Positions 2,093-17,774 of a stretch of 17,852 nucleotides of DNA are shown one piece after another (the stretch's first letter is position 1; each line of letters begins with the position of its first letter). The notes under the pieces are model-generated. The model was not told where the DNA came from, did no database searches, and was given only the letters and a program-made list of their open reading frames with translations. The translations under genes and the position numbers were made by a program. The stretch comes from Anaerolinea sp. (GTDB lineage Bacteria > Chloroflexota > Anaerolineae > UBA4142): assembly GCA_020722265.1 (NCBI GenBank), contig DYLA01000041.1, forward strand, positions 1 through 17,852, written 5' to 3'.

Positions 2093-4051
2093 ATGAACCC
2101 ACCATCTTCTCATTCCCAAAACGCTTTGCTCGCAGCGGTATTCTCCCTGTGCATCCCCGGCGCAGGACAACTGTACCTGCGAAAGCGTGAGCGCGGGATT
2201 GGCATTCTGGTGGGCGCGCTCGCGCTGGCGTACCTGATCAATTGGGCGCTCGCGAATTTCCAGATGGAGGCGATCGCGCTCTGGCTGTGGCTGGTGTTCG
2301 CGCTATTTTGGCTGTGGAATGTTTTCGATGCGTATCGCCTCGCGCGCGGGCAAACTACCTACGACCGGCTGGGCTTGCTGCTGGCAATCGTCGTTATCTA
2401 CGCCATCGGTTGGCAAGTGACCGACATCAATCCGGATCGGCTCATCACGCGGTTCAAAGATGTGCAGGTCGTCTTCAAGGCGCTAGTCTATCCCGATTTG
2501 TTCACGCAAGAGGGAGGTTCCTGGCGACCGAGTGAGAACTTTGGGGACATTATCGGCAAGGTGGTAGACCGCCCCGCGCCGGATTGGCTGGTTCAGTTGG
2601 GATTGGCGCAGAAAGGCGCCCTGGTTCCGACGCCGGTGCTGGGTAAGATGGCTGAGACGGTCGCCATCGGTCTGATGGCAACGTTTCTGGCAATCATTTT
2701 TGCGATTCCACTCAGTTTCTTTGCCGCGCACAATATCATGTCGCGCGTTCCCGGCGGCACCGTCATCTACTACGCGATGCGGACGTTTCTGAACGTCGTC
2801 CGTTCCGTAGACACGATCATCTGGGGTCTCATCATCGTCGTCTGGGTTGGCTTGGGCTCGTTCGCCGGGACGCTGGCGCTGACGATTCACTCCATCGCCG
2901 CGCTGGGCAAGTTGTACTCCGAAGAGGTCGAGCACATTGATCCCGGTCCCATCGAAGCGATCACGGCGACCGGCGCGAATCTGCTGCAAGTCATTCGTTA
3001 CGCCGTGATCCCGCAAATCGTCCCGCCGTTCCTCGCCTACACGCTGTTGCGCTGGGACATCAATATGCGTATGGCGACGGTGGTCGGTTTCGTCGCGGGG
3101 GGCGGCATCGGCTTTTTCGTCGTCGAGACGATCCGCAAAGGCGGCTATGAACAGTACGCGGCGGCGTTGTGGGCAGTCGCCATCGTCATCATCCTCGTGG
3201 ACTATGTGAGCGCGAAATGGCGCGCGCGGATTTTGGCTGGAGAGGTCAAGGTCTCGGCGGAAGCGCCCAAGCCGTTCTACGCGTCGTTGCGCGGACTGTT
3301 TTGGCTGGTGCTCGGTCTCGCGGTGTTCGCGCTCTGCTGGCAACTTTCGGAGATTGATTTGCGCAAGTTGCTCGAGCCGTCGCCTACGTTCGTCAAGGTG
3401 GTGCGCGATTTCGTGGCGATTGACCTGAGTCCAGAGACGTTCGACACGGTGCTCAAGCAGATGCTCGTCACGATTTTCCAGGCGTTGCTCGCGACGACGT
3501 TGGGTGGATTGGCGGCGGTCCCGTTTAGTTTTCTTGCCGCGCGCAATTTGATGGGGGGCAGCGCGCTGACGCTGGTGGTGTATTACGTGGCGCGCAGCGT
3601 GTTGAATGTGCTGCGTTCGATCGAAGCGCTGTTGTACGTCGCGATCTTTGTGTTCTGGGTTGGCATTGGACCGTTCGCCGGGATGCTTGCGCTCGCCATT
3701 ACGACGTTTGCGCTCATCGGCAAACTCTTCTCGGAGGCGATTGAGAACATTGACCCCGGACCCACGGAAGCGATTGCGGCGACTGGCGCGACCGGCTTGC
3801 AGACGATCATCTACGCGATCTTGCCGCAGATCATTCCACCGTTCGTTTCGTATTTGATTTACCAATGGGACATCAACATCCGCATCGCGACGATTGTGGG
3901 ATTTGCGGGTGGCGGCGGCGTGGGTTTGCTCTTGAATACGTATTTCAGTATGCTGCAGTACCACAAAGCCGGTACGGTAGTGGCGATGATCGTCGTGGTG
4001 GTGGCGGCGATGGATTTTGCGAGCGCGAAGATTAGGGAGCGGATGGTGTAG
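2093..4051 (+). CDS. phnE: Phosphonate ABC transporter permease: two complete PhnE permease domains fused in one 652-aa polypeptide, plus a ~100-aa N-terminal two-helix membrane extension
   Basis: The PhnE signature (EAI.ATGA..Q.I.YA.IPQI.PPF....L.RWDIN.R.ATVVGF.GGGG.G) appears twice, around residues 290-340 and 540-600. The ATG lies 2 nt after the phnC stop. Confidence 0.8.
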   Translation: MNPPSSHSQNALLAAVFSLCIPGAGQLYLRKRERGIGILVGALALAYLINWALANFQMEAIALWLWLVFALFWLWNVFDAYRLARGQTTYDRLGLLLAIVVIYAIGWQVTDINPDRLITRFKDVQVVFKALVYPDLFTQEGGSWRPSENFGDIIGKVVDRPAPDWLVQLGLAQKGALVPTPVLGKMAETVAIGLMATFLAIIFAIPLSFFAAHNIMSRVPGGTVIYYAMRTFLNVVRSVDTIIWGLIIVVWVGLGSFAGTLALTIHSIAALGKLYSEEVEHIDPGPIEAITATGANLLQVIRYAVIPQIVPPFLAYTLLRWDINMRMATVVGFVAGGGIGFFVVETIRKGGYEQYAAALWAVAIVIILVDYVSAKWRARILAGEVKVSAEAPKPFYASLRGLFWLVLGLAVFALCWQLSEIDLRKLLEPSPTFVKVVRDFVAIDLSPETFDTVLKQMLVTIFQALLATTLGGLAAVPFSFLAARNLMGGSALTLVVYYVARSVLNVLRSIEALLYVAIFVFWVGIGPFAGMLALAITTFALIGKLFSEAIENIDPGPTEAIAATGATGLQTIIYAILPQIIPPFVSYLIYQWDINIRIATIVGFAGGGGVGLLLNTYFSMLQYHKAGTVVAMIVVVVAAMDFASAKIRERMV

Positions 4052-4099
4052 AAGGTGACGGGGGTGACAAGGTAACAGGGTGATGAGCAGAAGCGCGAT

Positions 4100-4128
4100 T
4101 TGCGTTCTTGGGGAAAAGAGCGCATAAT
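4100..4128 (+). promoter_or_regulatory. Candidate sigma70-like promoter TTGCGT-N17-CATAAT in the island leader
   Basis: TTGCGT 4100-4105, 17-nt spacer, CATAAT 4123-4128. A second weaker candidate is TTGACT 4142-4147 with AAGAAT 4167-4172 (N19). Confidence 0.25.
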
Positions 4129-4347
4129 TGTTGCTGTAAGTTTGACTTTGTCCCGCGGGAGCGGATAAGAATCTTGGTTTTAGTCTCCCATTCATATTGA
4201 CGGCGCGCCGACTTGGCATTGGGAGGCGAGGTTCATCAGTATTTGCGTTTGGCTGATTGCTGTTGCCGTTGGAGGCGATAGATGGTTAGCTGTTGCTCGT
4301 GGGGCAAGTCTCGTTTTGGCGCACGATGGGGTGTAAGCCATATGAAA

Positions 4348-4400
4348 CACCTGCTATTCGGCGCGTCTGGTAGACGCGTGGGGAGCAGGTGTTTTGTGTT
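4348..4400 (+). terminator. Compound stem-loop followed by a U-rich tract; an attenuator/intrinsic-terminator-like element in the 415-bp leader of the SPFH gene
   Basis: Outer stem CACCTGCT (4348-4355) pairs with AGCAGGTG (4384-4391). Inner perfect stem CGCGTCT (4362-4368) pairs with AGACGCG (4372-4378) around a 3-nt loop. It is followed by TTTTGTGTTT (4392-4400). Confidence 0.4.
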
Positions 4401-4466
4401 TGAAGGCGGCAGAATTGAGGCAAACGCACATTCGTTACCGTGCGGGTTCGTGGCAGGAGGGCGCCT

Positions 4467-5987
4467 ATGACACGCCGTGAGCGAATTGTATTCTATCTTG
4501 GACTGTTTGGAGTGTCGGTTTTTGTTTTGCTGCCGATGGTCCTCTCTGCCTGGCTCTTTTTCAGATTGGCGTCTTGGTATGTTGGCAAGATTCCAGAACG
4601 TCGGCTTCCGCTGACCGAGTTTGTTTCACCTTCGCATAAGAGATTCTGCGAGTGGCTCAGTGGGCTGTTGAACAGTCTTGGCGGCAAAATGCTTATATTG
4701 ACCTCCCTACTTGCCGGCGGAGGAGCCATCTTGGCAAAGAGTGTGTTGGGGTTGGATTTGCTATGGGGCTACTGGCTTGCCAACGTCGGTCAAGCGGTGG
4801 TCTACTTGTTTCTTTATCCATTCCTCAAGTATTCGTATTGGGAGTACTATCTGTCGCAAGCCGAGCCGGCGGCGCACTTGCTTGTCGGTGGGAGAGAGGA
4901 GTACGACAAACTGTCCGAGACGGACAGGAAGAAACTCACACGCCACGTTGCCGATGTGCTGATTGGCATCAACAAAGGCACTTGGGTAGTGAGCGGAGGT
5001 AAAGCCCAACTGTACAACGCCCCTGCTGGTTGGCTCGCCAAGTTTGGTGGACCGGGGGTGTTAGTGGTACAAGAAGGGCACGCGGTTGTGCTGGAACGAA
5101 GCGGAAAGATTTCGCGGGTAGTGGGATGCGGGTTGACCTTTTTGGAGCCGTTCGAGCGCGTTGGTTTAGTTGTCTATTTGGCGGCTGGGGGGGAGCATTT
5201 TCAGGTCAAACAAGTTGTCACGAAAGACAAAGTGGTGATTGATGAGATTGATTTGTATGTCTATCACAAAGTTGATCAAGGCGACAAATCGCGCCGGAAC
5301 GGTATGTTTCCGTTCGATGTCAAGATCATTCTGGAAAAGGTATGGACGCCGAAAGGATCCGATCGTGAGGATAAGAGTGCGGACTTGGGGGGAGCGGTGC
5401 GAGCGGTGACGGATACAGCTGTGCGTGATGTGATTGCTCAGTATAATCTGGCTGACTTTATAACCGCCACTGGAGACATTCGACAGAGACTCAAAGGCGA
5501 ATTCAAGGCAGCCATCGAACGCGTAACCGACGCCGCGATGGGAATCAAGATTATCGTGGTGGATGTTGGGTATATCAAGTTTCCTGCCGATGTACAGCAA
5601 GAACTCGTCGAAGTTGCAAAGGCGAAGGCGAAGAAGGAGAGGGTGCTGACCGATGCCGAAGCAGAGAGACAGGCAAAAATCACTATAGGCGAGGGAGAAC
5701 GTGAATACCTGCGCAAGCAAGGTGAAGGAAAAGCGTTGGCTGCACGCGAAGAGGGATTGGCAAAGGCGGAGGGCGAATCAGAACGTGTGCGCGAAATGCT
5801 GATCGTTCTCTCGCAACTGCCGATTGACGATAAAAGCAAGATGAATCTACTTAGGACGATATTTCGAGGCGATCAGTATCGCGAGGCGGTTCGAATGTTG
5901 ATGATGATAAGTCGCTCGGCGCGCGGGGCTGTCCCACGCGTGGCGGGTGATGGTTCTGTGGATACCTCACCTGCGGAGAGCATTTGA
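4467..5987 (+). CDS. SPFH/band-7 (stomatin/HflKC/flotillin-like) membrane protein with three N-terminal TM helices and a C-terminal Glu/Lys/Ala-rich coiled coil
   Basis: AGGAGG at 4455-4460 lies 6 nt before ATG 4467, preferred over the 4440 ORF-track start. The SPFH core is VVQEGHAVVLERSGKISRVVGCGLTFLEPFERV...VIDEIDLYVYHKV...GIKIIVVDVGYIKFPADVQQE...AKAKAKKERV..AEAERQAKI. GC content is visibly lower than in the flanks. Confidence 0.8.
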   Translation: MTRRERIVFYLGLFGVSVFVLLPMVLSAWLFFRLASWYVGKIPERRLPLTEFVSPSHKRFCEWLSGLLNSLGGKMLILTSLLAGGGAILAKSVLGLDLLWGYWLANVGQAVVYLFLYPFLKYSYWEYYLSQAEPAAHLLVGGREEYDKLSETDRKKLTRHVADVLIGINKGTWVVSGGKAQLYNAPAGWLAKFGGPGVLVVQEGHAVVLERSGKISRVVGCGLTFLEPFERVGLVVYLAAGGEHFQVKQVVTKDKVVIDEIDLYVYHKVDQGDKSRRNGMFPFDVKIILEKVWTPKGSDREDKSADLGGAVRAVTDTAVRDVIAQYNLADFITATGDIRQRLKGEFKAAIERVTDAAMGIKIIVVDVGYIKFPADVQQELVEVAKAKAKKERVLTDAEAERQAKITIGEGEREYLRKQGEGKALAAREEGLAKAEGESERVREMLIVLSQLPIDDKSKMNLLRTIFRGDQYREAVRMLMMISRSARGAVPRVAGDGSVDTSPAESI

Positions 5988-6025
5988 TTGGGTTGCAAGT
6001 TGGGCAATGGTGAGGGATGATAGGT

Positions 6026-7063
6026 ATGACCAAGAGATGTCCCAGCCCCACTCAATGTACCATAAACTTGCTGGCGCGCCGCAAAGAGGAATTTAGAGGC
6101 GCGACATGGAATCTGCTTTTGTCAGCCGGGCAGGATCTGTGCAAGGAAGATCAAGAGCGGGCTCGCCAAAGCTTTGACCAATCGCTCAAACTGGCTGAGG
6201 ATTTATCGGCGGTCAATGATCGGGACGCCGATTGCCTACGGGCGACGGCTTTAGCGTGCTTGGGTGCACTGGCTCTATGTCAAAATAAGGCGGATGACGC
6301 GCTCAGGTACTTTCAGCGGAGTGAAGCCGCCTTTGCTTCAAAGGGGGAGAGGTACGGTCAAGCTGTTGTGCTGTATGCGGAGGCGCACGCCTACAGGATC
6401 AAACAGGACTGGCGACGCGTTTTTTGTTGCTATGAGCAAAGTTCGCGCCTGTTGGCGTTTTTGGCGAGTGATCCGCTTACGGACTATACGCGTCAACTTG
6501 TGAGAGAAGAGCATCGCCAAACCGTTGCCGAATGGGAAAAGGATCTTGGCGTGGACGTGGAGCGAGGGGCAGGCAAGAGACTCGACTTCCGGTTGGGCTT
6601 CTTACCAGTCTTTGGTAAGATTGCGGCGGGTAATCCTTATCCTGTTCCAGAGGATGTAGAAAACTACATAGAAACGGATCGTTTTATCATTGATGGTAAG
6701 CCATATGCCATTGCCAAGAGCCAACATCTTACACTCAACTTTTCCCCTTACGTGATGTATGTAGCACTCTGTGTTAGCGGTGATAGCATGAATATGGCGG
6801 ACATAAATATCGGCGACTATGTGATCCTTCAAGTGCCATCGGCTGCCGGATTGCGGTTAGAACCGAAGACAGGCGATATAGTGGTGTTAGCATTTCCGGA
6901 GGAGAACACAGTGACGTTGAAACGTTGCCGGCGGAGTCCCAAGAAGATTACTTTCTATCCTGAGAGCACCAATCCCACGCACCTATCGTACGAATTCGAT
7001 GCGTCGCTAGATATACCTGTTAGGATCGTCGGCATCCACGTCGCCACCCTCAAGCCATTATGA
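6026..7063 (+). CDS. LexA-like S24 family autopeptidase with a non-HTH, Cys-rich TPR-like helical N-terminal domain (~190 aa)
   Basis: The C-terminal domain aligns motif-for-motif with LexA. LPVFGKIAAGNPYPV matches LPLVGRVAAGEPLLA, with the Ala-Gly scissile bond encoded at 6626-6631. The Ser nucleophile is in VSGDSM and the general-base Lys in TVTLKR. No HTH is recognisable in the N-terminal part. Start 6026 (GAGGGA 8 nt upstream) is preferred over 6017. The stop TGA 7061-7063 overlaps the psuG ATG. Confidence 0.8.
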   Translation: MTKRCPSPTQCTINLLARRKEEFRGATWNLLLSAGQDLCKEDQERARQSFDQSLKLAEDLSAVNDRDADCLRATALACLGALALCQNKADDALRYFQRSEAAFASKGERYGQAVVLYAEAHAYRIKQDWRRVFCCYEQSSRLLAFLASDPLTDYTRQLVREEHRQTVAEWEKDLGVDVERGAGKRLDFRLGFLPVFGKIAAGNPYPVPEDVENYIETDRFIIDGKPYAIAKSQHLTLNFSPYVMYVALCVSGDSMNMADINIGDYVILQVPSAAGLRLEPKTGDIVVLAFPEENTVTLKRCRRSPKKITFYPESTNPTHLSYEFDASLDIPVRIVGIHVATLKPL

Positions 7064-7983
7064 TGCTCCTCGCCCTCGAATCCACCCTCATCGCCCACGG
7101 ACTCCCGTATCCACACAACCTCGCCGCCGCGCGCGAACTGGAAGCCATCGCTCGCGCGCACGGCGCCCAGCCGCGTACCATCGCGATCATCGGCGGCGAA
7201 ATCAAAATCGGGTTGAGCGACGCGGAGTTGCAGCATCTCGCGCGGGCGCAGGGCGTGCTGAAACTCGCACGACGCGACCTCGCGATGGCGCTCGCACAGA
7301 AACGCGACGGCGCGACCACCGTCAGCGCGACGATGTTCCTCGCGCATCGCGCCGGCATCCGCGTTTTCGCCACCGGCGGGATTGGGGGCGTACACCGCAC
7401 GCCAAAGGATGAAGGCAGAAGGCAGAAGGATGAAAATGCCCCTTCGTCCTTCATCCCTCATCCTTCATCCTTCGATGTCTCTGCCGACCTTCCCGAACTC
7501 GCGCGCACTCCCGTCGCCGTCGTCTGCGCGGGCGCCAAAGCGATTCTCGATTTGCCCGCGACGCTCGAATGGCTAGAGACATTCGGCGTGCCGGTGCTCG
7601 GTTGGCAGACGGACGAATTCCCCGCGTTCTACTCGCGCGCGTCGGGCTTGCGCGTGCCCGCGCGCGTCGAGTCGGCGGAGGATGCCGCGCGCGTCATCCA
7701 GACACATTGGGAACTGGGCATGAGCAGCGGCGTCCTCGTCTGTGTGCCGATCCCGCACCAAGACGAGATTCCGCGCGCGGTGATCGAGCCGCACATCGAA
7801 CGCGCGCTGCGCGAGGCGGAAGAGCGACGCATCGTCGGCGGCGCGGTGACGCCGTTCGTGCTGGCGCGTTTGGCGGAGTTGACGCAAGGCGCGAGCGTGC
7901 GCGCGAACATCGCGCTGCTCAAGAACAACGTCGCCGTTGCGGCGGAAATCGCCCAAGCCCTGCAAGTTATTCGTCCAACCTGA
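7060..7983 (+). CDS. psuG: Pseudouridine-5'-phosphate glycosidase (PsuG / indigoidine synthase A-like); apparently N-terminally truncated, with a ~20-aa in-frame insertion
   Basis: LALESTLIAHGLPYP, FATGGIGGVHR, VVCAGAKAILDL..TLE.LETFGVPV and TPFVLARLAELT match the PsuG family. The ORF begins about 25 aa later than the recalled canonical PsuG sequence. An extra segment TPKDEGRRQKDENAPSSFIPHPSS lies between GGVHR and FDVSADL. Confidence 0.75.
   Translation: MMLLALESTLIAHGLPYPHNLAAARELEAIARAHGAQPRTIAIIGGEIKIGLSDAELQHLARAQGVLKLARRDLAMALAQKRDGATTVSATMFLAHRAGIRVFATGGIGGVHRTPKDEGRRQKDENAPSSFIPHPSSFDVSADLPELARTPVAVVCAGAKAILDLPATLEWLETFGVPVLGWQTDEFPAFYSRASGLRVPARVESAEDAARVIQTHWELGMSSGVLVCVPIPHQDEIPRAVIEPHIERALREAEERRIVGGAVTPFVLARLAELTQGASVRANIALLKNNVAVAAEIAQALQVIRPT
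7404..7474. repeat. AT-richer palindromic mini-element inserted in frame within psuG (GGATGAAGG/CCTTCATCC arm repeats)
   Basis: Left arm GGATGAAGG (7407-7415) and GGATGAAAA (7428-7436). Right arm CCTTCGTCC (7441-7449), CCTTCATCC (7448-7456) and CCTTCATCC (7462-7470). The arms are mutually complementary, centred on CCCC 7439-7442. Confidence 0.5.
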
Positions 7984-8009
7984 AACTTCAACCGGCAGCG
8001 GAGATTCAG

Positions 8010-8669
8010 ATGTCAGATCCTCTTGCCCTCCTCATCACCTTTCTCTACGTCGCGTGCATCCTCGCACTCGGCGAGGGATTGCGGCGCAGGCTGAAATTCT
8101 CGGTCGAGTTCACGCGCAAGTTCGTCCACATCGCCGTCGGGATGATCGCGTTCCCGCTCGTCGCGCTGTTTCAGGCTTGGCCATTTGCCATCATCCCGCC
8201 GCTCGTCTTCATCATCGTCAATTACGTTTCGTATCGCCGCCAGATTTTCGCGGGGATGGAGACTGGCGAGCGGGGACAACTCGGCACGGTCTATTTCCCG
8301 ATTTCGTTTTCGATTCTCATTCCGCTTTTGTGGTCGCAGCCCGCGTGGCTCGTCGCCTCGCTGATGCCGATGACGTGGGGCGACGCGTTCGCGGCGATTG
8401 TGGGCAAACGCTTGGGCACGCACAAATTCACGGTGCTGGGGCAGACGCGCTCGATCGAGGGTTCGCTGGCGATGTTCGCGTTCAGTTTCATCGCGACCTT
8501 TGGCGCGCTCGTTGTGTTCGCCCAGCCACTCGCCGCAAGTCTCGCGCTCGCGTTCGTCACGGCGCTCGTGGCGACGCTCGTCGAAGCATTTTCGCCGTTC
8601 GGGATAGACAACCTCACCGTGCCCTTATCATCGGCAATCGCGCTCGTCGCGCTCGAAACGTTGATGTAG
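8010..8669 (+). CDS. Integral membrane CTP-dependent polyprenol/phytol/dolichol-kinase-like protein (CdsA / CTP_transf_1 superfamily)
   Basis: Multi-TM protein with the GDAFAAIVGKRLG...RSIEGSLAMF motif characteristic of the phytol/dolichol kinase and CdsA superfamily. ATG 8010 lies 26 nt after psuG. The upstream part of track ORF 7569.. is an Arg-rich overlap artefact. Confidence 0.55.
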   Translation: MSDPLALLITFLYVACILALGEGLRRRLKFSVEFTRKFVHIAVGMIAFPLVALFQAWPFAIIPPLVFIIVNYVSYRRQIFAGMETGERGQLGTVYFPISFSILIPLLWSQPAWLVASLMPMTWGDAFAAIVGKRLGTHKFTVLGQTRSIEGSLAMFAFSFIATFGALVVFAQPLAASLALAFVTALVATLVEAFSPFGIDNLTVPLSSAIALVALETLM

Positions 8670-13511: not shown

Positions 13512-13601
13512 GGTCTTTCGAAATTTACACACATTTTACATTCCCCTAACAACAAAATAGTCAATTCCGTTTATGATGTCGTCAGAATGGAGGAAACGGT
13601 T

Positions 13602-15197
13602 ATGCAACTTTCCCGCCGCGAATTTCTAAAAGATATGGCGTTCGTCGCCGCGATGGCCGGCTTGCCCGGCTGGACGACTGACCTCGATGAAGCGCCGCCG
13701 CTGGAGATGCTGTCGCTCAACGCCGGCGCGTACCCCTGGCAGTGGACGCCGCGCAGCGACATCGGTCAAGGCAATCCGATCATCACCGCGCTCAATCGCA
13801 TTGCCTTCGGTCCGCGCCCCGGCGATTTCGAGCGCGCGCAGCAGATGGGTGTTGATGCGTACATTGAGGAGCAACTGGCGCCGGAATCCATTGACGACAG
13901 CGCGCTCGAACAAAAACTCGCGGCGCGCTATCCCACACTCTCGATGAGCAACGCCGAATTGATGCGCAACTATCCGCGTCCTGCTCCCGCCGCTCAGCGA
14001 GACCCCCAAGCGAAGCAAACGCCCGGACCCATGCAGGTAGTTCAGGAACTGCAAGAGGCGACGATTCTACGCGCGCTGTACAGTCAGCGCCAACTCCATC
14101 AAGTGCTCGTTGACTTTTGGTCGAATCATTTTTCGATTTACATCGCCAAGAACGATTGCCGCTGGATGAAGACGGTGGACGACCGCGAGGTGATTCGCCA
14201 ATACGCCTTCGGCAAGTTCAAGGACTTGCTCCTCGCGAGCGCGCAAAGTCCGGCGATGCTCGAGTATCTTGACAATCGCTTGAACGTCAAAGGTGTCGCG
14301 AACGAGAACTATGCGCGCGAGATCATGGAACTGCACTCGCTCGGCGTGGACGGCGGCTATACCCAGAAAGATGTGCAAGAATTGGCGCGCGCGCTGACCG
14401 GCTGGACGATTATGCCGCTGCGCGCCGCCTCCCTCGCCCCAGACAAAGCCGGAACGTTCATCTTCGATCCCAAGCGGCACGACGATGGCGCGAAGAAAAT
14501 CCTGGGCGTCGAGTTGCCCGCCGGCGGTGGCATCAACGACGCGCTCAAGATCATTGACGTTCTCGCGAATCATCCTTCGACCGCGCGGTATCTTTCGCGG
14601 AAACTGGTCACACGCTTTGTGGCGGACAATCCACCCGACGCGTTGGTGCAGCGCGCCGCGCAGACCTTTGCGCAGACCGGCGGCGACATCCGCGCCGTGC
14701 TGGGAACGATCCTCCACTCGGACGAATTCAAAAACTCGTTCGCGCAAAAGATCAAGCGACCGTTCGAACTGATCGCGTCTGCGCTCCGCGCGCTCGACGC
14801 GCAGATCGAAGATGGGCGCGCCTTGAACGCCGCGCTGCGCTTGATGGGGCAGGGACTCTTTTTGCACCCCACGCCGGACGGCTATCCTGACAATGGCGCG
14901 GCGTGGATCAACACCAGCGCTCTCCTCGCGCGATGGAACCTGGCGCTGCTTGCCGCGGCAAATCGCGTGCCGCGCGGCAAGGTGGATTTGCAAGCCGCGA
15001 TGAGCGGCGCGTCCGCCAAGACCAACGGCGAGGTGGTGGATTATTGGGTCAACTACATTTTGCATCGCAACATCTCGGAGAGTGACCGGCAAAAACTGAT
15101 CAACGCGGTGGGCGATTCGCGCGCGACGTTTGAAATGGCCAAGTTGCCTCTGCTGGTCGCGCTGATTCTCGCATCGCCGCATTTTCAATATCGCTGA
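13602..15197 (+). CDS. DUF1800 family protein with a twin-arginine (TAT) signal
   Basis: GGAGGA at 13589-13594 precedes ATG 13602. SRREFLK TAT motif. Paired with a downstream DUF1501 gene, the usual family arrangement. Confidence 0.75.
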   Translation: MQLSRREFLKDMAFVAAMAGLPGWTTDLDEAPPLEMLSLNAGAYPWQWTPRSDIGQGNPIITALNRIAFGPRPGDFERAQQMGVDAYIEEQLAPESIDDSALEQKLAARYPTLSMSNAELMRNYPRPAPAAQRDPQAKQTPGPMQVVQELQEATILRALYSQRQLHQVLVDFWSNHFSIYIAKNDCRWMKTVDDREVIRQYAFGKFKDLLLASAQSPAMLEYLDNRLNVKGVANENYAREIMELHSLGVDGGYTQKDVQELARALTGWTIMPLRAASLAPDKAGTFIFDPKRHDDGAKKILGVELPAGGGINDALKIIDVLANHPSTARYLSRKLVTRFVADNPPDALVQRAAQTFAQTGGDIRAVLGTILHSDEFKNSFAQKIKRPFELIASALRALDAQIEDGRALNAALRLMGQGLFLHPTPDGYPDNGAAWINTSALLARWNLALLAAANRVPRGKVDLQAAMSGASAKTNGEVVDYWVNYILHRNISESDRQKLINAVGDSRATFEMAKLPLLVALILASPHFQYR

Positions 15198-15269
15198 ACC
15201 GACGAAGGACGGAAAACAAGTGTCCGTCTGCCGGCGTCGGTCATGCGTCAGCCATTGGAGGATTCTCAA

Positions 15270-16601
15270 ATGAGTGATACAACCACTCGACGTGAATTAC
15301 TCAAGCGCACCGGCGTGTTGACCATCGGCGCGCTGACCTTCCCGCTGTGGATGCCGCGCCTTGCCTTCGCCGCGCCCGACACGGCGACGTCGGGCGACAT
15401 TCTCGTGTGCGTGTTTATGCGCGGCGCGGCGGATGGATTGAATCTCGTCATCCCGCACGGCGACAAGGATTACTATGCCGCGCGCCGCGCCCTCGCGATC
15501 CAGGCGCCAGCCTCAAGCAACCCCGATGCGGCGATTGACCTCGACGGCTTTTTTGGATTCCATCCCCTCTTGCGCCCGCTGAAAGAGGTCTGGGATGCCG
15601 GCGCACTTGCGGTCGTGCACGCCGTTGGTTCGCCCGACCCCACGCACTCGCACTTTGACGCGATGGATTTCATGGAACGCGGCACGCCGGGCGAAAAGGC
15701 GATCCCGACCGGATGGATCGGCCGTCATTTGCAGCAGATGGCGAGCAACAACAAGTCGCCGTTTCGTGCAGTGGGAATGGGCAGCCTGCTCCAGCAATCC
15801 CTGCGCGGTCCGGTGGCCGCGACCTCGCTGCAGAGCATCGCCGACTTTCACCTGAAGGGTGATTCCCGGCAAGTCGAGTACTTTCAGAACGCGCTCGCGT
15901 CGCTGTACGAGGGCGATGGATTTCTCGCAAGCGAGGGAACGCAGACGCTGCAAGCGATGCGCGATCTTGCCAAACTCGCGTCATCGAATTATACGCCTGC
16001 AAATGGTGCGAAATATCCAGACACGCCATTCGGCAAAGGATTGTCCGCACTCGCGCAGTTGATCAAAGCCGGGCTGGGAGTCGAAGTCGCGTGCGTGGAC
16101 ATTGGCGGATGGGACACGCATGTGCAGCAAGGCACTCTGAAAGATGGGCAGATGCCGCGGCTCATCACCGAGTTTGCCAGTGGGCTGGCGGCATTCTACG
16201 CCGATATGCAAGATCAGATGAAGCGCATCACGCTCGTCACGATGACCGAGTTCGGTCGGCGCGTGCAAGAGAACTCGAATCAGGGAACCGATCACGGACA
16301 TGGCAGCGTGATGTTTGTGATGGGCGGCGGCATCAAGGGCGGCCGGGTGTATGGCGAGTGGCCCGGCTTGGGCAAAGACGCTCTCTACGGTCCTGGCGAC
16401 CTCGCGATCACGACCGACTTTCGCGACGTGCTGGGTGAGATCGTGCAAAAGAGATTGATGAACTCGAATCTCGCGGCGGTGTTCCCAAATTATCCGACCT
16501 TCAAGTTTCGCGACATTGCCAATCAGCAAACGGCATCGCTGAACACGCCGCAGTACGCGCTCGCATTGCCCTTCAGTTCCAAGATTCCGATGGGGGCGTA
16601 G
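15270..16601 (+). CDS. DUF1501 family protein (sulfatase-like fold) with a TAT signal
   Basis: GGAGG precedes ATG 15270. TRRELLKRTGVLTIGAL TAT signal. Conserved ...WDTH...GTDHGHG... motifs. Confidence 0.75.
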   Translation: MSDTTTRRELLKRTGVLTIGALTFPLWMPRLAFAAPDTATSGDILVCVFMRGAADGLNLVIPHGDKDYYAARRALAIQAPASSNPDAAIDLDGFFGFHPLLRPLKEVWDAGALAVVHAVGSPDPTHSHFDAMDFMERGTPGEKAIPTGWIGRHLQQMASNNKSPFRAVGMGSLLQQSLRGPVAATSLQSIADFHLKGDSRQVEYFQNALASLYEGDGFLASEGTQTLQAMRDLAKLASSNYTPANGAKYPDTPFGKGLSALAQLIKAGLGVEVACVDIGGWDTHVQQGTLKDGQMPRLITEFASGLAAFYADMQDQMKRITLVTMTEFGRRVQENSNQGTDHGHGSVMFVMGGGIKGGRVYGEWPGLGKDALYGPGDLAITTDFRDVLGEIVQKRLMNSNLAAVFPNYPTFKFRDIANQQTASLNTPQYALALPFSSKIPMGA

Positions 16602-16707: not shown

Positions 16708-16772
16708 TGAATCCGCGAATGGCGCGATAGAGTGCAGCGGTGTCCGATTTAGTTCTTTTGCCTGAGAGACGA

Positions 16773-16805
16773 AGACCTGGAAGGTCTCCAAGACCTTCCA
16801 GGTCT
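16773..16805. repeat. Palindromic hairpin repeat, copy 3, identical to copy 2, ~35 nt upstream of the ATPase start codon
   Basis: AGACCTGGAAGGTCT-cca-AGACCTTCCAGGTCT, read directly. Confidence 0.85.
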
Positions 16806-16838
16806 GGGTTTGACTTTTCATCCTTCAGGAGACCCACA

Positions 16839-17774
16839 ATGCCCAACCCCTTCTTCTACGGCGGTCGTGTCAATCCAGAGCAGTTCGTCGGACGACGCGC
16901 AGAGTTGCAGCGAATCTTTGCGGGCTTGGAAGTCGCCCACACGGGGCAGATGCAAAGTTTCTCCGTCGTCGGTCCGCGCCGCATCGGCAAATCGTCGCTG
17001 TTGTTTTACGTCGCGCAGCGGTACGCGCACTATCTGACGCACGCCGCACCATATCGCTTTGCCTATATCGAGTTGCAGGACGCGCACTGCCACACGCTCA
17101 ATGGTTTGCTCGATGGGATTCTCAAGCAACTGGATGCGGGTGAACTCGTCGGCAATCACGCGCCGCTGGTGGAATTTCAAGACGCGCTCCTTGCGCTCAG
17201 AAAGCGCGGCGCGCTCCCCGTCGTCTGCCTCGATGAATTCGAGGAACTCATCCACCGCCGCGAGCAATTCACGCTCGACTTTTACGAATCGTTGCGCTAT
17301 TTGATGAACCAGCACGCGCTCGCGTTCATCACCGCGTCCAAATCTCCGCTGATTGATCTCGCGCAAACGCTGGGCTACACCTCCCCCTTCTTCAACATCT
17401 TCACCCACCTGCCGCTGGGCGAACTCACCGACGACGAAGCGCGCGCACTGCTGGTGCGCGGCGCGGACTGTGACCGTGCGTTCACGCCGACCGAACAAAA
17501 TGACGCGTGGCGTCTGGCTGGCAATCATCCGTACAAACTGCAACTCATCGGCAGTTTGCTGTACCAAGCGAAAGCGGATAACCGCGCGGTGGATTGGGCG
17601 GAACTGCGGCGCGAGTTTGTGATGCAACTGCAAAACGTGGGGCTGCAAGCGAACGTGGCGCGAATGTTGGAACAAGTTGGACAAAAATCCAAAGGCACGG
17701 TGATTTCTGCGGTGAAAGCGGCGATACAGGCATTGTTCAAAGCGTGGATTGATAGTTGGAATCAACCGCGTTAG
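16839..17774 (+). CDS. Standalone AAA+/STAND-type NTPase domain protein (AAA_16/Arch_ATPase-like), 311 aa, with no sensor repeats
   Basis: AGGAGA RBS at 16826-16831. N-terminal NPFFYGGRV..FVGRRAELQRI, Walker A GPRRIGKSSLL, Walker B VVCLDEFEE, sensor-like FITASKSP. The ORF-track start at 16740 would run through the hairpin and is rejected. Confidence 0.7.
   Translation: MPNPFFYGGRVNPEQFVGRRAELQRIFAGLEVAHTGQMQSFSVVGPRRIGKSSLLFYVAQRYAHYLTHAAPYRFAYIELQDAHCHTLNGLLDGILKQLDAGELVGNHAPLVEFQDALLALRKRGALPVVCLDEFEELIHRREQFTLDFYESLRYLMNQHALAFITASKSPLIDLAQTLGYTSPFFNIFTHLPLGELTDDEARALLVRGADCDRAFTPTEQNDAWRLAGNHPYKLQLIGSLLYQAKADNRAVDWAELRREFVMQLQNVGLQANVARMLEQVGQKSKGTVISAVKAAIQALFKAWIDSWNQPR

Follow-up and report, generated by a model that had tools for sequence, protein, structure and literature searches.

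A predicted LexA/UmuD-type S24 autopeptidase with a tetratricopeptide repeat head, encoded beside an SPFH membrane scaffold in Chloroflexota

The locus

The gene considered here lies at positions 6026–7063 of the forward strand of contig DYLA01000041.1 from Anaerolinea sp. (assembly GCA_020722265.1); the whole stretch analysed, 17,852 nucleotides in length, is referred to as the window, and related loci found elsewhere carry numbers prefixed with L. A contig of assembly GCA_975271335.1 is identical to the window. The gene encodes 345 residues plus a stop codon, and its product joins an N-terminal tetratricopeptide repeat (TPR) domain of eight helices (residues 1–190, 6026–6595) to a C-terminal S24 peptidase domain of the LexA/UmuD type (residues 193–345, 6602–7060), for which it is called TPR-S24 below. 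The open reading frame (ORF) opens at 6017 or 6026, and the ATG at 6026 is supported as the start by a GAGGG Shine–Dalgarno-like sequence 10 nt upstream, by the choice of the gene callers and by the N-termini of homologues. Upstream on the same strand, with a gap of 38 bp between its stop codon and the TPR-S24 start, lies the gene of an SPFH/Band_7 membrane protein (4467–5987). These two genes, with no TIR or KAP gene accompanying them, represent the minimal form of a module that is found in several larger versions among relatives.

The S24 peptidase domain

When judged by its sequence, TPR-S24 is a Ser–Lys autopeptidase of the LexA/UmuD type that possesses all the residues required for LexA-type autocleavage. 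The S24 assignment is based on Pfam, on a partial match to TIGR00498 and on alignments with LexA sequences of the PDB. The Pfam family Peptidase_S24 (PF00717) matches residues 194–337 with 34.9 bits where the gathering score is 23.3, and relatives reach 49–62 bits with the same model. The LexA equivalog TIGR00498 scores 35.9 bits against a cut-off of 110.95 and covers the C-terminal S24 part only, and the UmuD model NF007621, with 23.9 bits against a cut-off of 110, likewise stays below its cut-off; among the ORFs of the window and their Pfam matches, no umuC or polymerase gene adjoins TPR-S24.

HMMER alignments to the structure sequences of E. coli LexA pair the Ala–Gly strand LPVFGKIAAGNPYPV with LPLVGRVAAGEPLLA, the G-x-S-M nucleophile motif VSGDSMNMADINIGDYVIL with VSG-SMKDIGIMDGDLL, and the general-base motif TVTLKRCRR with VTVKRLKK. 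The codons of the corresponding residues can be read directly from the forward strand: the predicted scissile bond Ala201–Gly202 (motif KIAAGNP, codons at 6626–6631) is equivalent to Ala84–Gly85 of LexA, and the predicted nucleophile Ser254 (GDSM, 6785–6787) and general base Lys299 (TLKR, 6920–6922) align with the S119 and K156-equivalent positions of LexA. The surrounding motifs lie at 6617–6640 (KIAAGNPY), 6779–6793 (GDSMN) and 6914–6928 (TLKRC). In a family alignment of 27 sequences, which share approximately 30–54% identity with the window protein, all 27 members have the Ala–Gly pair, the G-x-S-M Ser and the K-[RK] Lys, and since this conservation persists despite identities as low as about 30%, these must be selected features of a real gene family. 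We infer from these motifs that the protein cleaves itself between Ala201 and Gly202.

An earlier note on this DNA had proposed an S24 autopeptidase with an intact Ala–Gly site and Ser/Lys pair, and the proposal is borne out by the Pfam score, the LexA alignments and the family alignment; the three alignments it quoted were reproduced by HMMER, its scissile codons were correctly placed, and the catalytic Ser and Lys, whose loss on realignment it had named as grounds for abandoning the idea, are retained in 27/27 sequences. The domain also has a feature of its own: an insertion of about 26 residues that is specific to the family (YIETDRFIIDGKPY...L.FS) lies between cleavage site and Ser, and its columns are conserved. 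In the PDB alignments, residues 193–315 of the query correspond to just 97 LexA residues. A Foldseek search with the full-length model returned TPR matches only, the S24 half adding none.

The N-terminal domain

According to profile, structural model and fold comparison, a TPR array of about 190 residues stands in place of the DNA-binding head. Pfam gives a sub-threshold match to TPR_12 in the window protein and one above threshold in the relative L048, and a profile of the N-terminal domain matches more than 10,000 proteins, mostly long ones with 4–11 separate repeat matches each. AlphaFold2 (AF2), run from the N-domain alignment, yields eight helices (pLDDT 84, pTM 0.81), for which Foldseek finds only TPR proteins in the PDB (KLC, LGN/Pins, FLU, NASP and the TPR part of NprR). 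The domain is thus recognisable as an array of helical-hairpin repeats both by profile and by fold. Within the first 36 or so residues, two short helices of low confidence (residues 8–36) fall outside the TPR matches, and conservation there falls on hydrophobic, not basic, positions.

No match to a helix-turn-helix (HTH), a winged HTH or LexA_DNA_bind (PF01726) was found in the window protein with Pfam and NCBIfam, whereas a true LexA from the same scan (L024) does give PF01726. In most members, the N-terminal domain carries a neutral to acidic charge. A TPR array without a detectable HTH makes sequestration or signalling more plausible than transcriptional repression.

The earlier note had described the N-terminal part as TPR-like and free of any HTH or winged helix, had suggested Foldseek as a check, and had preferred sequestration or signalling to repression, and in all of this the present results agree with it. 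Its count of eight cysteines, among them a CC pair, is also correct (residues 1–190 have them at positions 5, 11, 39, 70, 78, 85, 134 and 135). Its suggestion of a Cys-rich metal or redox sensor, on the contrary, has been dropped: the window protein has 10 cysteines in total versus 3–7 in relatives, no cysteine column is invariant across the family, C39, C78 and C85 are common only within the closest clade, and five of the ten, namely C70, the pair C134 and C135, C249 and C301, are private to the window sequence or its lineage. In the absence of a universal cysteine column, the idea lacks comparative support.

The SPFH partner

The SPFH gene encodes 506 residues from the ATG at 4467 preferred by the gene callers, the ORF itself opening with a GTG at 4440. 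Its product is polytopic and comprises N-terminal transmembrane helices, a Band_7 domain (Pfam, 67.3 bits, residues 209–409 of the 515-aa form), a coiled-coil and a C-terminal tail (approximately the last 120 residues, 5625–5984), with QmcA (8z5g) and PH stomatin (3bk6) as the closest solved structures. The SPFH neighbour, at which the earlier note had hinted, has become the strongest lead. In all 24 loci whose context is readable (13 of clade 1 and 11 of clade 2), TPR-S24 is preceded on its own strand by an orthologous SPFH gene; this count leaves out L017, a short contig with its context unread, and L018, which has no flank. On either side of the pair the genes vary: upstream of SPFH there may be a phosphonate ABC gene, a PhdYeFM-like gene, a WD40 segment, or a KAP NTPase together with a second SPFH-like paralogue, and downstream of S24 there may be PsuG, a PHP-like gene, phosphoglucomutase or an ABC gene.

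The only TPR-S24 protein found without an SPFH neighbour, one of 400 aa at L088 (2968–5285), keeps the Ser/Lys dyad and has no Ala–Gly pair, a pattern which, though that of a single case, fits a cleavage site that belongs to the SPFH-linked function. A flipped order, S24 followed by SPFH, was considered for L014 and rejected, because the partial gene upstream is the C-terminus of the orthologous SPFH protein; the Band_7 protein downstream is an unrelated second SPFH.

Exchange and co-variation of the module

The loci L006 and L019 illustrate how the module changes. Their flanks on both sides of it share 87% nucleotide identity, their PsuG proteins are 89% identical and their SPFH cores 95–100%. 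Between these conserved parts, a segment comprising the last ~140 residues of SPFH, the TIR gene (in L006 only) and almost the whole TPR-S24 gene has been swapped, and within it the SPFH tails are 30% identical, the TPR domains 32% and the S24 domains 57%. SPFH tail, TIR and TPR-S24 have been replaced together, as one cassette.

Across 11 compared loci, the TPR domain is the fastest-evolving part of the module, and its pairwise identities follow those of the SPFH tail (Pearson 0.85) more closely than those of the SPFH core (0.38). This correlation fits co-adapted partners that are exchanged as a unit, and is suggestive of such a relationship; it is not counted as evidence of contact.

Accessory genes of related loci

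In five of the 14 clade-1 loci, the interval between SPFH and S24 is occupied by a TIR gene of the same orientation, with gaps of 18–46 bp. At least three TIR families occupy this position: PF10137, with full-length similarity to PDC-S35, TIR_2, and a ThsB-like TIR fused to a TPR. L111, from assembly GCA_016215025.1, has the exact synteny of the window (phosphonate ABC transporter, ClpB, CinA, BacA and DUF1800) with a TIR gene added between SPFH and S24, and L016 and L109 share a common neighbourhood in which the TIR gene is either present or absent.

The operons of clade 2 open instead with a KAP-family NTPase. At L021 (3056–9114), tightly overlapping genes follow one another in the order KAP NTPase, a paralogue of ~600 aa with a weak Band_7 match, an SPFH protein of ~400 aa, a helical/TPR-S24 protein and a PHP-like protein of 219 aa; further loci of this clade are L022, L023, L025, L026, L050, L062 and L083. 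In L021–L025 an extra, divergently oriented SPFH-like pair is found upstream of the operon. Matches to PADLOC models are confined to these accessory genes of relatives, the TIR genes matching PDC-S35, ThsB and Aga_TIR and the KAP genes PDC-S20, QatA and PifA. The presence of such genes suggests that the module serves membrane-associated stress signalling or anti-phage signalling of an abortive-infection kind.

A separate observation concerns L014, where an LSDAT protein followed by a TIR-EAD8-CHAT protein is encoded at 4554–8385, about 1 kb past the second Band_7 gene that follows the SPFH–S24 pair (P0048). We take these two to be a conflict system of the Kaur/Aravind type. L014 shows that the module can occupy a defence-rich neighbourhood.

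Another non-HTH fusion of the S24 domain was encountered in Patescibacteria (Candidate Phyla Radiation), as proteins of 670–770 aa with S24 at their C-terminus, both in genomes (L028, L032, L033, L036, L038 and L040) and in metagenomes (L074–L076, L087, L089, L091 and L095). In L032 and L033, the two to which Pfam was applied, a Schlafen-group-3 (DUF2075-like) helicase precedes S24, and L032 also has an N-terminal GIY-YIG nuclease; these fusions are perhaps helicases or nucleases triggered by damage or infection.

Occurrence and previous descriptions

A word-indexed search of 5.8 billion proteins recovered only 11 with the TPR-S24 architecture, and the N-domain profile, searched against 1.84 billion cluster representatives, added seven distant members of ~350 aa. 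More members, including those of the second clade, came from locus scans of a collection with one genome per species and of JGI metagenomes. Database labels for homologues read “Peptidase S24-like”, “hypothetical” or, wrongly, “LexA”. The full-text literature searched holds no description of TPR-S24, of SPFH with S24, of SPFH in phage defence, or of LexA-like proteins with tetratricopeptide repeats, and in Kaur et al. 2020 SPFH appears just in a reference. A module that combines an S24 self-cleaving switch with the pairing of SPFH and protease, both of known kinds, has thus not previously been described in that literature.

Neighbouring genes and regulatory sequences

Downstream of TPR-S24, a PsuG/Indigoidine_A-like gene for a pseudouridine-5'-phosphate glycosidase (7060–7983, forward strand; PF04227, 395 bits) has its ATG overlapping the S24 stop codon (ATGA), and the two are probably co-transcribed. 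L001, L005, L006, L019, L048 and L111 share this overlap, as do L027, L034 and L049 of clade 2; it may reflect either translational coupling with a functional meaning or an inherited gene order.

No site of the GAACN4GTTC type near the operon (4000–6100) was found with up to one mismatch allowed, the three sites of the window being fewer than expected by chance, a result that applies to this box and not to one that the lineage may have of its own; regulation of the operon by the SOS response was set aside for this reason. Promoter and terminator scans gave matches at chance level.

Several neighbours are recorded here in their own right. A gene for a PhdYeFM-antitoxin-like protein of 74–75 aa lies directly upstream of SPFH in L016 (7796–8023) and L109 (3306–3530), and at the equivalent place in the window (4282–4470) there is a called ORF of 62 aa that has no Pfam match and overlaps the SPFH start. 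In L088, the TPR-S24 gene comes after one for a membrane Exo_endo_phos (EEP) protein and before an ECF sigma/anti-sigma pair. The DUF1800/DUF1501 gene pair at 13587–16601 of the window, in synteny shared with L001 and L111, is unrelated to TPR-S24. Finally, about 10 kb from the module, an ORF of 344 aa on the forward strand (16740–17774) encodes a STAND-type NTPase (nSTAND2, ATPase_2, AAA_16, TniB-like) with a weak PADLOC match to PDC-S27, and it may be an unrelated conflict-system gene.

Interpretation

S24 autopeptidases are textbook DNA-damage switches, which destroy a DNA-binding repressor or mature UmuD. For TPR-S24, we favour another role, although the case for it is about evenly balanced: that of a cytoplasmic, self-cleaving adaptor which does not bind DNA, is dedicated to the SPFH scaffold as its partner, and switches a membrane stress or defence module rather than transcription. 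The TPR array would dock on a protein ligand, most likely the SPFH scaffold, through its variable C-terminal tail, and in forms with three genes also the TIR protein. A trigger would then allow the linker strand bearing Ala201–Gly202 to enter the Ser254/Lys299 site, where the protein would cut itself; candidates for this trigger are a RecA*-like co-protease action, a perturbation of the membrane or the scaffold, or a phage protein to which the TPR domain binds. Cleavage would irreversibly part the adaptor from the S24 core, and could thereby switch the SPFH complex together with the TIR NADase or the KAP NTPase where one is present.

A more far-reaching version is possible but distinctly doubtful, namely that SPFH and TPR-S24, accompanied or not by TIR or KAP NTPase, form an immune or abortive-infection system, anchored in the membrane, that has gone unrecognised in filamentous Chloroflexota. 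In such a system, a self-cleaving protease of the LexA type would have been turned from repressing genes to gating proteins, and the TPR head would restrain the SPFH tail or the TIR NADase until autocleavage, triggered by infection or damage, irreversibly released the effector. Were this true, the module would correspond to the SOS switch at the level of protein sequestration, and would be paralleled in plants, where SPFH (HIR) proteins cooperate with TIR/NLR immunity.

Several observations weigh against the adaptor role or its link to defence. Neither TPR-S24 nor SPFH has a match in PADLOC-DB v2, for which the proteins of the window, L006, L008, L021 and L088 were searched. The P2 residue is a Pro (IPAG) in most members, unlike in LexA, and the AF2 model is of low confidence over residues 175–212, around the cleavage site. 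The correlation between SPFH tail and TPR domain is no more than suggestive, because the two are contiguous on the DNA and the 11 taxa are related. All nine module loci in the collection with one genome per species belong to Chloroflexota, mostly Anaerolineae (Anaerolineales, Anaerolineaceae, Anaerolinea sp. and Candidatus Villigracilis), and housekeeping genes (ABC transporter, PsuG and ClpB) surround the locus, so part of the SPFH–S24 adjacency could be inherited synteny; PsuG itself often follows S24 in the two deep clades, if not at all loci. No full-length member was present on the viral contigs of IMG/VR, and a phage origin of the family was rejected on that account.

If the adaptor role is correct, a family that has kept the S24 switch on a TPR adaptor and an SPFH scaffold would show the same chemistry at work in post-translational gating at the membrane. 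SPFH proteins, whose bacterial functions are largely obscure and whose known partners are NfeD and FtsH proteases, would gain a new and experimentally tractable partner. With its recurrent additions of TIR or KAP genes and its cassette swap, the module is a candidate for a new defence system in a poorly studied phylum, and should the trigger prove independent of RecA, the protein could be put to use as a compact sensor module that cleaves itself.

Alternative explanations

The main rival is that S24 acts in trans, as an analogue of NfeD/STOPP proteases, because partnership between SPFH proteins and proteases is an established theme. The enzyme would then mainly cut SPFH, for instance in the C-terminal tail held by the TPR domain, and so remodel or release the scaffold, the Ala–Gly pair being an autoinhibitory pseudo-substrate or a pro-sequence. 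SPFH genes are classically paired with proteases: PH1510, a Ser–Lys dyad protease, cleaves the C-terminal region of its operon partner, the stomatin PH1511 (PMC3795559), and NfeD and FtsH are documented partners of SPFH proteins in a survey that lists no S24 partner (PMC2636767). The adjacency of SPFH and S24 in every readable locus and the co-variation of the SPFH tail with the TPR domain would suit such a protease as well, whereas the invariant Ala–Gly pair at a LexA-like spacing argues for cleavage in cis. S24 enzymes such as LexA, CI and UmuD cleave themselves and have poor activity in trans, which also counts against this alternative. As to the substrate, a candidate site in SPFH, “N-x-P-A-G”, which precedes the SPFH domain and resembles the IPAG of the protease, was dropped since its PAG motif is absent from clade 2 and variable in clade 1, and the SPFH tails contain no conserved Ala–Gly site. 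On balance, we regard a trans-acting protease as unlikely.

Less probable still, in view of the points against it, is the absence of any functional link, TPR-S24 being a UmuD/LexA-like paralogue that acts elsewhere, for example as a RecA*-triggered DNA-damage factor whose TPR domain binds a polymerase or a chaperone, with the SPFH adjacency reflecting vertical synteny and the TIR genes chance insertions in Anaerolineae. The restriction of the module to one phylum and the large-scale housekeeping synteny kept by close relatives speak for it, as do the frequent adjacency of PsuG and the resemblance of the L006 TIR to a stand-alone, single-gene defence candidate, PDC-S35. Nevertheless, SPFH remains adjacent in 24/24 loci at S24 identities of about 30% while the flanking genes differ on both sides, at least three TIR families have come to the same inter-gene position in several lineages, and the swapped cassette spans SPFH tail and S24 alike; nor does the operon have a umuC or polymerase neighbour, or an SOS-box-like GAACN4GTTC close by.

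A divergent repressor, either the LexA of the lineage or a local regulator of SPFH and PsuG with a helical N-domain that binds DNA in an unrecognised way, for example through its first two or three helices, is highly improbable: the JGI label “SOS-response transcriptional repressor LexA” of one homologue, the low-confidence helices outside the TPR matches, and the union of TPR and DNA binding in RRNPP regulators, of which PlcR and NprR are among the structural matches, are outweighed by the lack of any DNA-binding-domain match, a TIGR00498 score far below cut-off and limited to the S24 part, the alignment of PlcR and NprR through their TPR parts, the neutral to acidic charge with hydrophobic conserved positions, and the lack of a palindromic SOS-like box of the GAACN4GTTC type near the operon.

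Comparison with known systems

With LexA, UmuD and lambda CI (MEROPS S24, PF00717), TPR-S24 shares the catalytic fold family with its dyad of Ser (G-x-S-M) and Lys (K-R), an Ala–Gly pair that is followed by x-Pro and belongs to a strand some 50 residues ahead of the Ser, and a layout of two modules in which self-cleavage, here predicted, parts an N-terminal head from a C-terminal core. In contrast to the winged HTH of LexA, the XRE HTH of CI and the short tail of UmuD, its head is a TPR array, and it further differs in the insertion of ~26 residues, in the Pro found mostly at P2, in its linkage to SPFH, and in lacking a umuC neighbour or, near the operon, an SOS box of the GAACN4GTTC type.

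The pairs formed by NfeD/STOPP and stomatin (PH1510/PH1511) and by HflKC/QmcA and FtsH resemble the module in uniting an SPFH scaffold and a protease in one operon, and PH1510 resembles TPR-S24 in its Ser–Lys dyad, which acts on the C-terminal region of the SPFH partner. This is an analogy and not a homology, since the fold is that of S24 (clan SF) versus the ClpP-like S49; Pfam and NCBIfam detect S24 and TPR only in TPR-S24, and no ClpP-like S49 or NfeD OB-fold. Unlike NfeD/STOPP, the protein also has no transmembrane anchor, being soluble and equipped with TPRs and with a conserved putative self-cleavage site of its own.

Bacterial immune modules, such as gasdermins with proteases that carry TPR, WD40 or NACHT domains, BcTir/BcTpr, the ThsB of Thoeris, and the KAP proteins QatA and PifA, have in common with the present one a repeat-domain sensor on a protease beside an effector, the TIR (PDC-S35-like or ThsB-like) or KAP component that is optional in relatives, a fast-evolving repeat domain, and the allelic swap of a cassette. 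The module differs from them in that its core proteins have no PADLOC match and that its locus lies among housekeeping genes, with no obvious mobile island. To our knowledge, no S24 protease is known in protease- or TPR-gated immune modules of bacteria, and we know of no phage phenotype for this module.

RecA-independent LexA-like regulators, represented by IrvR of Streptococcus mutans, differ from TPR-S24 in carrying an HTH and in regulating transcription. Regulators of the IrvR type indicate that self-cleavage by an S24 domain can answer stresses other than RecA* (PMC7101444).

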